Assembly (NCBI GenBank): GCA_964573395.1 | Contig: CAZNJI010000004.1 | Location: forward strand, 27,379-91,378 | DNA: 64,000 nucleotides | Origin: an uncultured Candidatus Saccharibacteria bacterium | GTDB lineage: Bacteria > Patescibacteriota > Minisyncoccia > Phycocordibacterales > UBA9973 | Reading direction: 5' to 3' | In this document: one piece after another, positions 10,221 to 34,539 of the stretch | How positions within the stretch are numbered: position 1 is the stretch's first letter | Layout: each line of letters starts with the position of its first letter | Made by a program: the position numbers and the translations under genes | The notes under the pieces: model-generated | Databases searched by the model: none | The model's input: only the letters and a program-made list of their open reading frames with translations | Told to the model about the DNA's origin: nothing

Positions 10221-10625
10221 ATGGAATCTTCGCATCAGTCTTCGAAAAAGCAGTTCTCTGTTACTGCTCGGGCAAACAGCTTAAAGCATGCCCTGCGGGG
10301 AATCAGGCTCTTTTTCAAAACCCAGCACAATGCCTGGATCCAGCTTGCGATTGCCATTGTTGCGCTTTTTGCCGGCTTTTTCTTTTCTATTACCAAAGCG
10401 GAATGGATTGCGGTCATTTTTGCCATTATCATCGTTTTCATAGCCGAAGCTTTCAATACTGCCATCGAAATAGACATTAATTTAACGAGCCCTGAGTATC
10501 ACCCCTATGCCAAAGATACTAAGGATGTGGCAGCCGGAGCGGTACTCCTTGCCGTAGCAGGGGCTGGAATCATCGGAATTGTCGTCTTTTTGCCCTATAT
10601 AAAAGATTTTTTGTTGCCCAAGTAG
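10221..10625 (+). CDS. dgkA: Diacylglycerol/undecaprenol kinase family membrane protein
   Basis: LKHALRGI...IQLAIAIVALFAGF...AEWIAVIFAIIIVFIAEAFNTAIE...AKDTKDVAAGAVLLA are DgkA hallmarks, and there are three TM helices. Confidence 0.75.
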   Translation: MESSHQSSKKQFSVTARANSLKHALRGIRLFFKTQHNAWIQLAIAIVALFAGFFFSITKAEWIAVIFAIIIVFIAEAFNTAIEIDINLTSPEYHPYAKDTKDVAAGAVLLAVAGAGIIGIVVFLPYIKDFLLPK

Positions 10626-10645
10626 TAGAGCTTATTTTCCTTATC

Positions 10646-10915
10646 ATGTTCTACATTTACAGCCTTCAAAGTAAAAATCATCCTCGCCAGTTTTATTTTG
10701 GTTTTACTCGAGATTTGAAGAAAAGGGTTGTAGAACATAATAAGGGTTTAAATATTTCAACGAAACGATACAAACCATGGGAGCTTATTTATTACGAAGC
10801 TTGCCTGTCTGAAATAGACGCAAAACGTAGGGAAAAATATTTAAAAACAACTGTGGGACGCCGAATGTTTAAAAAACGCATACGAGATTACCTGTTAATT
10901 ACCACTAAGAATTGA
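10646..10915 (+). CDS. Stand-alone GIY-YIG nuclease-domain protein (89 aa)
   Basis: YIYSLQS...YFGFTRDLKKRVVEHNKG...PWELIYYE...REKYLK is a GIY-YIG/URI-domain signature. It is paralogous to the gene at 32018-32281. Confidence 0.75.
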   Translation: MFYIYSLQSKNHPRQFYFGFTRDLKKRVVEHNKGLNISTKRYKPWELIYYEACLSEIDAKRREKYLKTTVGRRMFKKRIRDYLLITTKN

Positions 10916-10919
10916 GCTC

Positions 10920-11045
10920 ACTACTGGGCTAACCCGGTAGTAGAAACTGGCAGGCTTAGGATAGATAAAATACCTAAAAAGCCTTGCCAGTTCTTACTAT
11001 CCGGGTTGACTTCTTTGGCTAATTTGCTACTATAGCCGGTACGGC
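10920..11045 (+). repeat. Structured intergenic leader with repeated CCCGGTAGTAG / CTACTA(N)CCGG motifs and small hairpins
   Basis: Hairpin CTACTGGG-CTAA-CCCGGTAG at 10922-10941; imperfect inverted repeat AACTGGCAGGCTT/AAGCCTTGCCAGTT; direct copies of CTACTATCCGGG at 10995 and CTACTATAGCCGG at 11027. Confidence 0.5.
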
Positions 11046-11069
11046 CTAGAAGGGCTTGTTTTATTTGCA

Positions 11070-27370: not shown

Positions 27371-27412
27371 GGAATCCGCGCGGGCTTTCTGATTTTTTGG
27401 CGAGTTTGACAA
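27371..27412. repeat. Left copy of a perfect 42-bp inverted repeat (GGAATCCGCGCGGGCTTTCTGATTTTTTGGCGAGTTTGACAA) bounding the copper cassette
   Basis: Exact reverse complement of 31425-31466. Contains the 3' arm of a terminator-like hairpin (TCCGCGCGGA 27344-27353 / TCCGCGCGGG 27375-27384), a T-run, and a TTGACA -35 box. Confidence 0.9.
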
Positions 27413-31424: not shown

Positions 31425-31466
31425 TGTCAAACTCGCCAAAAAATCAGAAAGCCCGCGCGGATTCCC
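31425..31466. repeat. Right copy of the perfect 42-bp inverted repeat bounding the copper cassette
   Basis: Exact reverse complement of 27371-27412; lies 93 bp from the tmRNA 3' end. Confidence 0.9.
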
Positions 31467-31500: not shown

Positions 31501-31525
31501 GTGGGCGTGCCTTCGGCACGCCCAC
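31501..31525 (-). terminator. Hairpin GTGGGCGTGCC-TTCG-GCACGCCCAC downstream of the ssrA 3' end
   Basis: Perfect 10-bp stem; read on the minus strand it follows the tmRNA and precedes a U-rich run. Confidence 0.5.
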
Positions 31526-31559: not shown

Positions 31560-31944
31560 TGGTGGAGATGGGGGGAATTGAACCCCCGTGCAATAGGGAA
31601 TGACATACAAATCTCCGTGCGCAGCACAACTTGGGCGTTTAAGCGATGCACGAACAAGTCGTGCAAACTGTGCATTGCCGATCCTTTACGTTGTCGTTTT
31701 GCTCTTAAGGAAAAGAGCAGAATCTATTCTGATGTTCTTACACCTCTACCTTTCTATCAGAAATTGAAAGGAGAGACGCCAGCTTGGCTTACGCGAAAGC
31801 TGGAGCGAAGGCCTTACCGAAGTAAGGAGACTTCACCTTAGCGACACTGTTGCCAGATATCGTGTGAACGAAGGTTGCGGGATTACGTCCGTACCCGGCA
31901 CGCATGCATGTCTAATTCTTCTATTGTCGATGCCGATCATCCCC
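31560..31944 (-). ncRNA. ssrA: tmRNA (SsrA), about 385 nt, with encoded CCA
   Basis: Minus-strand 5' end GGGGAUGAUCGGCAUCGAC resembles the tmRNA consensus GGGGCUGAUUCUGGAUUCGAC. The 3' end is GGGGGUUCAAUUCCCCC-CAUCUCC-ACCA, a T-arm plus acceptor pairing with the 5' GGGGAUG, with a G3:U wobble. The internal ORF GCU AAG GUG ... GCG UAA predicts the tag AKVKSPYFGKAFAPAFA. smpB lies just upstream. Confidence 0.85.
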
Positions 31945-32017
31945 CTAAATCATTTTGCTCTGCAAAATGATCGGGCGAACATCCTAGCCCGAAACGGGCG
32001 GATGTTTTAGCCATAAA

Positions 32018-32281
32018 TCACTTATTCTGCGATTTTAAATAATCAACTTTTAGTTTCCTTTTAAACCGACCTGCCCACAGGCTTTTGAGAAATCTTTCTC
32101 GGCTAAATGCCTGTACCTTACTCTCAAATTTTTCTGAGTGAATAAGCTCAACAGGTAAGCGGTTTTGTGTGGCAGGAACATGTCCATCTTGATGACGTTT
32201 AAGTCGATTATTTAAATTGCTTGTACAACCGACGTATAACTTTTTATCTTTAAGAGATATGAGTATATAGACGATATACAT
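32018..32281 (-). CDS. Stand-alone GIY-YIG nuclease-domain protein (87 aa), wedged between smpB and ssrA
   Basis: MYIVYILISLKDKKLYVGCTSNLNNRLKRHQDG...ELIHSE...RERFLK is a GIY-YIG/URI signature. Paralogue of the gene at 10646-10915. Confidence 0.75.
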   Translation of the reverse strand: MYIVYILISLKDKKLYVGCTSNLNNRLKRHQDGHVPATQNRLPVELIHSEKFESKVQAFSRERFLKSLWAGRFKRKLKVDYLKSQNK

Positions 32282-32293
32282 ACAAGTAAGGGT

Positions 32294-32731
32294 TTACGCA
32301 TATTCGCGCCGCAGTTCGCGGTCGAGGTCGCGTTTTTTGATTCTGTCGCGTTTGTCAAAGCGCTTCTTTCCGCGAACAATGGCCACTCGGGCCTTAATTC
32401 GCTTGCCTTTGGTATACAGCGAAACAACGACTGCTGTCAAACCTTTTTCTTTCATTCTTCCAGAAATATCAAGCAGTTCTTTTTTATGGAGCAACAGCTT
32501 TCGGGAACGGTACGGGTCGAAGTCTTCTTTGGTATTCCCAGGCTGATGCGGGGGTATGTGGGCGCCAAGTAAAAACAGTTCGCCCGAAAGGAGGGCAACA
32601 TAGGAACCGTCGAGGCTGCCTTTGTGCGTTCGAATCGATTTCGTTTCGGTGCCCAAAAGCTCAATCCCTGCTTCGTAGGTCTCAAGGATTTCATACTCAA
32701 ACGAAACTTTTTTGTTCGACAAAAGCGTCAT
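32294..32731 (-). CDS. smpB: SsrA-binding protein SmpB
   Basis: YEILETYEAGIELLGTEVKSIR...GSYV...LLGAHIPPH...RKLLLHKKEL motifs. Confidence 0.92.
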   Translation of the reverse strand: MTLLSNKKVSFEYEILETYEAGIELLGTETKSIRTHKGSLDGSYVALLSGELFLLGAHIPPHQPGNTKEDFDPYRSRKLLLHKKELLDISGRMKEKGLTAVVVSLYTKGKRIKARVAIVRGKKRFDKRDRIKKRDLDRELRREYA

Positions 32732-32766: not shown

Positions 32767-34539
32767 ATGGAAAAATATAAGACTGAATGGGATTTAGCTC
32801 TCCTCTATAAAAGCGATAATGATCCGCAAATCGAAAAAGACATGCAGACAATTGAAAAAGCATGTGCCGATTTTGAGAAAAAATATCGGAACAAAGACTT
32901 TACCTCAACTCCAGAAAAACTTCGAAAGGCTTTAGAGGATTCAGAAGCGCTCAGTAAAAAAATAATGGGACATAAGCCATGGTGGTATTTCATGCTTCGA
33001 TCTCATATGGACTCAGAAAATAGCGTAGCAAAGGCCATGGTAACACAATTTGAACAGCGTCTTACAAAATCATCCAACAAAATAACTTTTTTTTCACTAA
33101 AAGTTGCTGCGATTCCTAAAAAAGACCAAAAGAAATTTCTCACCAATTCTTTACTTAAGCCATTTAAATATAATCTTGAGCATTCATTTGAAAATGCAAA
33201 ATATAACTTGACTGAGGCGGAAGAAAATATGGCTAGCCTGTTTTCACAAACCAGTTATTCAATGTGGGTAAGCGCACAAGAGAAAAGTTTATTCCAGCAG
33301 TTAATTGATTTTAAAGGAGAAAAGATTCCCGTCTCTAAAGCAAGAGAATTACTCGCCGATCTTCCCAAAAAGGACCGTCATGAGTTATATAAAAAAATCA
33401 CTGACACACTTAAATTTGTTAGTCAATTTGCCGAAGCCGAAATAAACGCAATATGCAATTATAAAAAAGTACTCGATGAAAAGCGTGGATATAAAGAACC
33501 CTACAGTGCTTCGGTTATTGGTAATGAAAATACAGAAAAAGAAATTGAATTGCTCGCATCTGTCGTTACTAAATATTTTTCAATTAGTCATCGGTTTTAT
33601 AAATTACACGCAAAACTTCTTAAAGAAAAAACGATAACCAGAGCAGATGCAAGTGCAAAAATCGGAGAGATAAAAAAGAAATTTAATTTCCCTGAAATGG
33701 TTAAGGTTATTAATAATGCTTTTGAAAAAGTTGGGCCATGGTATGTCGACATGTTCAAAAAATATTTAACCCAAGGACAAATTGATGTATATCCACGGAA
33801 AGGAAAATACTCAGGAGGGTATCACTGGAAAACCGGCAGTAATCCTTCTTTTATTTTACTTAACCATGTTGACAGTATTAGATCAGTAGAAACACTGGGA
33901 CATGAGATGGGACATGCTTTTCATGGCGAGCTGAGTCAATTGCAGCCTCCGCGCTATCAAGATCATCCATCTTCAACGGCAGAAGTGGCGAGTACGTTTT
34001 TTGAACAGATTGTTACCGACGAAATTGAAAATATTCTTTCCGATAAAGAGAAAATTATTATGACTCATAGTAAATTGGCGCGCGATATCCATACTATTTT
34101 TACTCAAATTGCTTGCTTTAATTTTGAAACAGACCTGCATAAAAAAATTAGAGGAAAAGGACAGCTCTCAAAAGATGAAATAGCAGAATTAATGGGAAAA
34201 CACTTAAAGGCATACACTGGCCCAGCTATGAAAATTAATTCTGATGATGGATATATTTTTGTTTCTTGGATGCATCTGAGAATGTTTTTCTATACGTATA
34301 CCTATGCATATGGACATATCATAAGTAAGGCAATGTATGAGTGCTGGAAAAAAGATCGTTCTTTTGAATCAAAAGTAAGAGAATTTCTCAGTGCTGGAAG
34401 TTCAATGAGTCCTCGAGATATCTTTAAAAAAATTGGAATTGACATTAACGATCCAAAGTTTTTTGAGTCAGGACTTAAAGCCATTGATGCTGATATCACT
34501 AAGCTTGAAAAACTAGCAAAGAAAAACGGGCTGATTTAA
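32767..34539 (+). CDS. pepF: Oligoendopeptidase F, M3B family
   Basis: Zinc motif HEMGHAFH plus a downstream Glu; 590 aa. Confidence 0.85.
   Translation: MEKYKTEWDLALLYKSDNDPQIEKDMQTIEKACADFEKKYRNKDFTSTPEKLRKALEDSEALSKKIMGHKPWWYFMLRSHMDSENSVAKAMVTQFEQRLTKSSNKITFFSLKVAAIPKKDQKKFLTNSLLKPFKYNLEHSFENAKYNLTEAEENMASLFSQTSYSMWVSAQEKSLFQQLIDFKGEKIPVSKARELLADLPKKDRHELYKKITDTLKFVSQFAEAEINAICNYKKVLDEKRGYKEPYSASVIGNENTEKEIELLASVVTKYFSISHRFYKLHAKLLKEKTITRADASAKIGEIKKKFNFPEMVKVINNAFEKVGPWYVDMFKKYLTQGQIDVYPRKGKYSGGYHWKTGSNPSFILLNHVDSIRSVETLGHEMGHAFHGELSQLQPPRYQDHPSSTAEVASTFFEQIVTDEIENILSDKEKIIMTHSKLARDIHTIFTQIACFNFETDLHKKIRGKGQLSKDEIAELMGKHLKAYTGPAMKINSDDGYIFVSWMHLRMFFYTYTYAYGHIISKAMYECWKKDRSFESKVREFLSAGSSMSPRDIFKKIGIDINDPKFFESGLKAIDADITKLEKLAKKNGLI

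Follow-up and report, generated by a model that had tools for sequence, protein, structure and literature searches.

A GIY-YIG gene and a double-hairpin unit inserted between smpB and ssrA: a candidate homing-like element in Patescibacteria

Results

Layout of the locus

We analyzed a 64,000-nt stretch of contig CAZNJI010000004.1 (assembly GCA_964573395.1; here called the window), in which a short open reading frame (ORF) for a GIY-YIG protein lies on the minus strand between smpB and ssrA, the gene for transfer-messenger RNA (tmRNA) (Table 1). The original prediction had described this ORF as tightly packed between the two genes on their strand, and all coordinates hold, including the gaps of 12 nt and 73 nt on its two sides. 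The tmRNA is intact and full length and encodes a normal tag (GNSVAKVKSPYFGKAFAPAFA, followed by a stop codon). It went undetected by ARAGORN and was found at full length by Rfam; ARAGORN failed on the tmRNA in about one-third of the related loci, all of which were detected by Rfam and a family-specific profile. The ORF has a GC content of 35% (30% at third codon positions [GC3]) versus 48% (GC3, 53%) for smpB, and the ORF was more AT-rich than its own smpB in 57/57 loci of the family. Homologues of this protein and of the other GIY-YIG protein in the window, which is described below, come from Patescibacteria, also called the Candidate Phyla Radiation (CPR), and are of the Paceibacteria type (e.g., Nomurabacteria and Lloydbacteria).

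The ORF and its spacer are an insertion

One genome per GTDB species was scanned with an SmpB alignment, and the best 80 loci were kept; smpB, GIY-YIG genes, and tmRNA were annotated in each, with an Rfam check of the tmRNA on 20. Besides Rfam, tmRNA was located with an nhmmer profile that was checked against Rfam on 40 loci. In 79 of the 80 species loci, ssrA followed smpB on the same strand (the remaining contig ends too early), with a median gap of 43 nt (range, -11 to 828; at most 150 nt in 71/79). Only one of these representatives, L064, carried a GIY-YIG gene in the gap, and the ORF was absent from the four closest SmpB relatives of the window (78, 73, 73, and 67% identical). The smpB stop codon TGA lies within the tmRNA 5' end (GGGGATGA) in L083 and L085, giving an 8-nt overlap, while the gap is 8 nt in L086 and 79 nt and AT-rich in L084; the empty junction of L083 reads ...GAATACGCACGGGGATGATCGGCATCGAC... 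When the window was aligned with L083 and L085 (alignment A5), both flanks aligned and about 351 nt were found in the window only. SmpB ends in EYA in the window and in EYARG in L083, because the inserted DNA brings a new stop codon. The GIY-YIG ORF and its spacer are thus an insertion in the smpB-ssrA pair. The earlier proposal that acquired DNA had been wedged into a functionally coupled pair is supported by the gap alignment and by the absence of the ORF from the closest relatives, and the smpB-GIY-YIG-ssrA arrangement, whose conservation across the lineage had been named as evidence to the contrary, is missing from 79 of the 80 species representatives.

Two further features of empty junctions were observed. 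An smpB stop codon inside the tmRNA 5' end (8- to 11-nt overlap) occurs at L083:1430-1437 and L085:4437-4444 and also in L053, L054, and L075; in such loci, tmRNA maturation would leave the smpB mRNA without a stop codon, as was earlier proposed for Carsonella (PMC4131195). In addition, two other highly structured inserts of about 110 nt, with no Rfam family at the gathering threshold, are shared in the smpB-ssrA spacer by the empty loci L012, L015, and L029 and by L025 and L032, respectively. Small inserts in general seem to have a hot spot at the smpB-ssrA junction.

One genomic address and a patchy distribution

A metagenome scan with an alignment of the ORF's closest homologues yielded 238 relatives, of which the best 80 (59 to 71% identical) were kept. 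The scan was blind to genomic context, because the search patterns lay inside the protein. In 78 of these 80, smpB was directly upstream on the same strand; one exception was cut by a contig end, and the other, L100, has a different upstream gene and no smpB. Directly downstream, ssrA was present in all 72 of the best 80 loci whose contig extends far enough, and Rfam reported a full-length tmRNA with the same +1 position in 20/20 occupied loci checked. The ORF starts a median of 12 nt after the smpB stop in 61 distinct family members, and a Shine-Dalgarno-like motif precedes only 4 of the 61 genes. About one-third of the loci have CGCCTAAAGC just before the ATG, mirroring the right end of the insertion. 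This subfamily, termed A (ERFLKSLW motif), has a single genomic address, the upstream edge of ssrA.

Occupied and empty loci were interleaved on an SmpB tree (33 Fitch steps versus a permutation mean of 43.8). The nearest SmpB neighbor was an empty locus for 22 of 57 distinct occupied loci, and the SmpB proteins of some occupied/empty pairs are 89 to 91% identical (e.g., L096 versus L010). A constant insertion point within a conserved locus, occupied only sporadically among relatives, is what is expected of a free-standing homing gene.

The double-hairpin unit

The right end of the insertion is a 68-nt unit that, in the window, folds as two hairpins (-35.2 kcal/mol; z = -3.9). Across the family, the spacer between the ORF and the tmRNA consists of one to four tandem units of the form GGCTAA-hairpin 1-CGCCCGA-hairpin 2-TTTAG, the last of which stops exactly at the tmRNA +1 (TTTAG/GGGG). 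In many loci, the stop codon of the ORF is the TAA of GGCTAA, and in a few the unit overlaps the coding 3' end. In an alignment of 30 units (A3), 95.4% of cells were paired versus 66.7% in shuffles, a level reached by 0 of 500 shuffles, and sliding the 3' partners by 1 to 3 columns left 37 to 45% paired. Changes were seen on both sides in 16 of the 17 pairs of the unit, and the three linkers were invariant. The first set of units was chosen by a fold-energy cutoff and was partly circular in that respect; a covariance-model search recovered units without this filter. The model (R1) scored the window unit at 65.7 bits, its sole strong match in the window, where the other matches were a reverse-strand echo at the unit and one weak, probably chance match inside rplV. 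Units were detected by R1 in nearly every occupied locus. Within a 510-kb set comprising the window, 84 smpB loci (of which only L064 has the ORF), and 9 loci of the family of the window's other GIY-YIG gene, R1 matched only the window, the occupied L064, and the unoccupied L038. The spacer ended in TTTAG or a close variant in 52/56 occupied versus 3/80 empty loci, and the unit was kept in 1 of 83 empty loci. The double-hairpin unit therefore belongs to the element.

The two do not always occur together. L038 has a solo unit directly 5' of the tmRNA (L038:2980-3043) and no ORF; either the ORF was lost and the unit is a relic, or the element was copied without an ORF. L096 has the ORF and no unit. 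Unit copies also lie inside ssrA (L064:3609-3667, with which L107 is grouped; L090:3288-3344; L092:2914-2970; L117:1519-1574; L143:3111-3171; L145:3065-3124; and L156:3109-3161), most of them just 5' of G(C/T)RTAATA. The site of these copies, GGGCATAAT, resembles the tmRNA 5' end, GGGGATGAT. Hairpin 1 of an intra-ssrA unit matches that of the upstream unit of the same locus, which points to local, repeated copying of units.

Several other identities for the spacer were considered. Rfam gave no match up to an E value of 10 in positions 31900-32320, the unit included, and a known ribozyme or RNA family in the spacer was rejected on that ground; in 40 related loci, Rfam found tmRNA and tRNA only, with no group I or II intron. 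A genome-wide repeat of the repetitive extragenic palindrome or miniature inverted-repeat transposable element (MITE) kind was rejected for the window, since the covariance model finds a single true copy there. A sigma-70 promoter inside the unit was not supported, as a consensus scan found none and the geometry relative to the tmRNA +1 is unfit.

The GIY-YIG protein

The Pfam GIY-YIG score is 51.7 bits versus a cutoff of 22.6, and no other Pfam domain exceeds its cutoff. The residues Y, Y, G, R, H, E, and E, which are invariant in an alignment of 36 sequences (A2), are all present in the window protein. A sequence-profile search of the PDB returned the UPF0213 structures 1ywl (E = 5e-10) and 1zg2 (E = 9e-10), followed by Slx1. 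The AlphaFold2 (AF2) model (predicted local distance difference test, 96.5) has the beta-beta-alpha-beta-alpha-alpha order of the GIY-YIG fold, and Foldseek matched it to 1zg2, Slx1 (7cq3; root mean square deviation, 1.9 A), and then the I-TevI catalytic domain. In the 36 sequences of A2, the conserved Glu is not followed by any invariant or near-invariant Asn; a conserved C-terminal Asn is the mark of the lineage of UvrC and the homing endonucleases (HEases) (PMC1564403). From profile and model, the protein is predicted to be a minimal, stand-alone prokaryotic Slx1-like/UPF0213 GIY-YIG domain. A profile search of 1.84 billion cluster representatives gave 21,386 matches at an E value of 1e-3 or less and 8 at 1e-30 or less, so that subfamily A appears as a narrow branch of a very large radiation. 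The ratio of nonsynonymous to synonymous divergence (dN/dS) among family members was 0.09, the same as for the adjacent smpB, which indicates that the ORF is kept functional by purifying selection as strong as that on smpB.

Evidence for movement

Synonymous differences (pS) between L131 and L129/L126 were 0.10 to 0.12 in the ORF versus 0.53 in the adjacent smpB (Fisher P values of 1e-7 to 3e-7). The tract of high identity starts about 120 nt before the smpB stop and runs into ssrA, and the contigs are unrelated upstream of smpB. A synonymous divergence of the ORF 4 to 5 times below that of adjacent smpB in this clade points to horizontal movement. In L096, 44 nt of the smpB 3' end recur downstream of the ORF with 2 mismatches and an unchanged encoded peptide, and we read this duplicate as an insertion footprint. 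Both observations suggest horizontal movement relative to the flanks, as is expected of a homing gene, and would be consistent with the element having been transferred or gene-converted along with flanking DNA. Comparing ORF and smpB divergence across all pairs was limited by third positions that are saturated and AT-biased beyond close relatives; the identity of the GIY-YIG proteins is flat at about 0.6 with respect to SmpB divergence, which constraint and saturation can explain. Subfamily A was absent from 2.9 million viral contigs (IMG/VR), and a phage origin is not supported, as the sole pattern match there (L176) has neither hairpins nor tmRNA.

Expression

A consensus scan of the minus strand between smpB, the ORF, and ssrA, which may not fit CPR promoters, found no promoter-like or terminator-like site, and a strong terminator-like hairpin follows ssrA. 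A promoter or terminator between smpB and the ORF had been proposed as a check on their cotranscription, and finding neither on this strand fits a shared transcript. Relatives have smpB-ssrA gaps of 0 to 20 nt or overlaps, so ssrA must be cotranscribed with smpB in them, and the inserted ORF most simply rides the same transcript. It is likely from this arrangement that smpB, the ORF, and ssrA form one transcription unit ending at the hairpin, and translation of the ORF is probably coupled to that of smpB.

Other GIY-YIG genes and flanking DNA

The original prediction called this ORF the second GIY-YIG gene of the window. The other copy (10646-10915; 34% GC) is real, although the two proteins are only 33% identical and belong to different subfamilies with different addresses; a recent duplication was rejected, there being no DNA similarity. 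Together with the diacylglycerol kinase gene dgkA, that copy lies between rplB and rpsS (10221-11069) and separates the genes for L2 and S19, whose adjacency is normally universal. Its closest homologues are found 18 nt downstream of rny in three cases and 27 nt downstream of uvrB in one and are always co-oriented, so that with dgkA in the window the site specificity of its subfamily is only partial.

In 7/80 species loci, members of at least two other GIY-YIG subfamilies are found on the strand of ssrA, 90 to 250 nt beyond the tmRNA 3' end, and the density of GIY-YIG genes just 3' of ssrA is far above that in the rest of these loci. Subfamilies with the motifs REIQIKKWRREKKE and FEKYLKSSSGHAF were seen 3' of ssrA in L007, L026, L031, L043, L063, L064, L074, L094, L096, and L124, without the double-hairpin unit. 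Subfamilies B and C were seen only in loci selected for smpB/ssrA, and address counts carry this selection bias. The other GIY-YIG subfamilies seem to have addresses of their own (3' of ssrA or after rny or uvrB), where they are co-oriented and tightly packed.

The copper cassette reported on the other side of ssrA was confirmed, its terminal inverted repeats being perfect over 41 nt. About 95 nt separate the right repeat from the tmRNA 3' end, and the relative L085 has different genes there. The order FtsH-PepF-SmpB-ssrA is common to the window and L085. Beside smpB, the window has an M3 oligopeptidase gene (32767-34539) with 34.8% GC (GC3, 29%) versus 48 to 51% for smpB and ftsH.

Table 1. 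Features of the smpB-ssrA locus in the window
Feature	Coordinates	Strand	Basis or remarks
smpB	32294..32731	minus	Pfam SmpB (E = 1e-46) and NCBIfam equivalog; upstream host gene, last two codons and stop altered by the insertion versus nearest relatives (A5)
Spacer between smpB and ORF, 12 nt	32282..32293	minus	ACCCTTACTTGT; no Shine-Dalgarno-like motif
GIY-YIG ORF, 87 aa	32018..32281	minus	Pfam PF01541 (E = 1.1e-13)
Gap from ORF to tmRNA +1, 73 nt	31945..32017	minus	
Double-hairpin unit	31945..32012	minus	Right end of the element; ends exactly at tmRNA +1
GGCTAA	32012-32007	minus	Part of unit
Hairpin 1	32006-31978	minus	Part of unit
CGCCCGA	31977-31971	minus	Part of unit
Hairpin 2	31970-31950	minus	Part of unit
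TTTAG	31949-31945	minus	Part of unit
ssrA (tmRNA)	31560..31944	minus	Rfam RF00023 (103 bits; model positions 1-374); 5' boundary is the insertion target
Terminator-like hairpin 3' of ssrA	31501..31525	minus	11 bp, 9 GC; promoter/terminator scan
Inserted segment, ~351 nt	31946..32296	minus	Boundaries ±1-8 nt; A5 columns 58-408, missing in L083 and L085; holds new smpB stop codon, 12-nt spacer, GIY-YIG ORF, and double-hairpin unit
Perfect 41-nt inverted repeats	27371-27411 and 31425-31465		Bracket csoR, copper P-type ATPase gene copA, HMA/DsbD-like gene, and cupredoxin gene

Discussion

We consider it probable, at roughly 60%, that the ORF and the hairpin unit constitute a selfish element, homing-like and specific for its site, that travels on the smpB-ssrA transcript. 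The two would form a single insertion element of about 350 nt whose home is the 5' boundary of the tmRNA gene. The element has no recognizable promoter, terminator, or ribosome-binding site of its own and so is probably expressed within the smpB-ssrA transcript, from which RNase P would still release the normal tmRNA 5' end, such that the insertion would cost the host little. The predicted nuclease would most likely aid the spread or retention of the element by cleaving smpB/ssrA junctions that are still unoccupied, or DNA close to them. Repair by recombination with an occupied copy would then insert the element plus some flanking sequence, amounting to homing without an intron. The hairpin unit would be the conserved right end, which may duplicate in tandem and be copied to a look-alike secondary site in ssrA.

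Several observations weigh against this model. Recognition of the site by an 87-aa catalytic domain is its weakest link: the protein has no DNA-binding domain and just a basic C-terminal helix in the AF2 model. Homing genes join the nuclease to a module that reads a long target, which is missing here, and to our knowledge every characterized GIY-YIG homing endonuclease has a DNA-binding domain. That the linkers of the unit are invariant hints at a specific recognition event, for which the homing model does not account. The GIY-YIG proteins are more identical than the SmpB proteins in 88% of locus pairs, which would be unusual for a selfish gene, and the GC content of the ORF tracks that of the host (r = 0.78), which implies that residence in a lineage is usually long. 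Distant hosts yielded no near-identical copies; at best, matches reached 73% identity to the window protein. The clear discordance in synonymous divergence (dS) comes from one clade only, selected after all pairs had been viewed, and the SmpB tree is a weakly resolved neighbor-joining tree of 145 aa. Finally, the Slx1-like lineage has been regarded as cellular, ancestral, and vertically inherited (PMC1564403). The presence of the ORF in 1/80 species, the interleaved tree, and the discordant dS are at odds with such housekeeping-type inheritance.

The behavior of the units would also fit a different division of roles, in which the hairpin unit is the true mobile agent, MITE-like or hairpin-ended with CTAAA...TTTAG termini, and the Slx1-like protein is its structure-specific enzyme, recognizing folded hairpins in single-stranded or cruciform DNA and cutting at TTTAG/G rather than at a long duplex target. 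The inverted termini, the one to four tandem copies, the secondary site in ssrA with its locally matched hairpin 1, the solo unit of L038, and the mirror of the right end before the ATG in about one-third of loci would all follow from it, and the nearest structural relatives, the Slx1 proteins, are structure-specific nucleases. However, the unit shows no genome-wide spread, with one copy in the window and nearly all others within about 1 kb of an ORF, and in L096 the ORF stands without it. We regard this explanation as possible, if unlikely.

We also considered that the ORF might be an accessory gene of the smpB-ssrA operon that serves the host in trans-translation or tmRNA maturation, for example, as a nuclease that recognizes the unit in precursor RNA and splits the mRNA from the tmRNA or excises an intra-ssrA unit. 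The absolute association with ssrA, the strict co-occurrence of protein and unit, purifying selection equal to that on smpB, a protein more conserved than SmpB itself, and units inside tmRNA genes that would need to be tolerated or removed are all consistent with such a role, and a TrmH fusion was once taken to suggest an RNA role for Slx1-like domains (PMC1564403). However, about 99% of the related species sampled lack the ORF, as do the closest relatives of the window, and all of these make tmRNA without it. The unit that would be processed is missing from these ORF-less relatives as well, so that the proposed function would only service the element itself. We know of no GIY-YIG enzyme that cleaves RNA, and both the dS discordance and the insertion footprints indicate mobility, leaving a host function doubtful.

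A more radical variant, to which we assign a low probability, is that the nuclease draws its specificity from its own 3' double-hairpin unit, as a folded nucleic-acid cofactor or a recognized structure, or that the pair is a new RNA-processing cassette. In the former case, the ORF and unit would be the smallest known self-targeting mobile unit and of interest as a minimal targeting system; in the latter, the cassette would allow an element to persist within or next to structural RNA genes in CPR bacteria. Least likely of all is an ancestral, immobile gene of the Paceibacteria smpB-ssrA locus that was lost many times and has a position-independent function such as DNA repair, since the fixed position, the correlation of ORF GC with host GC, the correlated identities among close relatives (about 85% for the GIY-YIG protein where SmpB is 80 to 95%), and the want of recent cross-lineage copies that speak for it are outweighed by the dozens of precise, remnant-free losses it needs (1/83 empty loci keeps the unit), the smpB/ssrA overlap that would have to be re-created in the window's sister lineages, the 4- to 5-fold lower pS of the ORF in the L131 clade, and the duplication footprint in L096.

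The searchable literature yielded no description of the smpB-GIY-YIG-ssrA arrangement or of the unit. CPR bacteria have tiny genomes in which many small "GIY-YIG family" genes are annotated and then ignored, and our findings show at least one subfamily to be an element with a precise address: it borders an essential RNA gene, has a conserved structured end, and shows signs of transfer between lineages. The element offers an entry point for studying selfish elements and the exchange of DNA in unculturable organisms, and it raises the question of how a nuclease without a DNA-binding domain achieves site specificity. For annotation, such ORFs and the units inside tmRNA genes disturb the prediction of tmRNA and of operons.

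Comparison with known systems

Insertion sequences of the IS200/IS605 group, with TnpB and a right-end (omega) RNA, resemble the element by analogy only: in both layouts, a nuclease ORF overlaps at its 3' end with a structured module, which reaches the right end and abuts a target-like flank, and hairpins occur at the ends. Here, there is no TnpA or TnpB, the only ORF being the GIY-YIG gene, the unit has no Rfam match, the protein is about 5 times smaller, RNase P would part the module from its flank, and RNA guidance is likewise an analogy only. Other elements are known to use the highly conserved tmRNA gene as a landing site, namely, integrase-borne islands at its 3' end and group I introns in the T-psi-C loop, some with LAGLIDADG genes, and standard, intron-containing, and permuted forms of the gene have been described (PMC11915505). 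The present element differs from these in using the 5' boundary, in having neither an integrase nor a ribozyme (no Rfam match), and in its size of about 350 nt (~351 nt in the window) with a single 87-aa ORF.

The closest likeness in sequence profile and structure is to Slx1-like/UPF0213 proteins (PDB 1ywl and 1zg2), which share the size, fold, motif pattern, and lack of auxiliary domains. These have been described as vertically descending housekeeping repair nucleases (PMC1564403), whereas here several subfamilies occur per genome, with their own addresses, a patchy distribution, and evidence of insertion and transfer. GIY-YIG insertions in CPR rRNA genes (Tsurumaki et al. 2024, PMC11270868) share the host group and the non-intron insertion at a structural RNA gene. 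Those insertions lie at scattered sites inside 16S and 23S genes, and were considered by their authors not to belong to a homing context; by description, our element is set apart by its one precise address at the 5' edge of ssrA and by its defined, structured end.

In its genetic behavior, the element resembles the free-standing genes of the Seg family of T4-like phages, the case of "intronless homing," in which an intron-less GIY-YIG ORF lies co-oriented between conserved genes, has no obvious expression signals of its own, occurs sporadically among relatives, and shows signs of flank coconversion. Seg proteins and I-TevI are about 200 to 250 aa long, have a C-terminal DNA-binding domain, and belong to the HEase/UvrC lineage, whereas the protein described here has 87 aa, comprises the catalytic domain only, and is Slx1-like. 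In contrast to the Seg genes, the element was not found in the 2.9 million viral contigs, resides in a cellular CPR genome, and carries a conserved double-hairpin unit.

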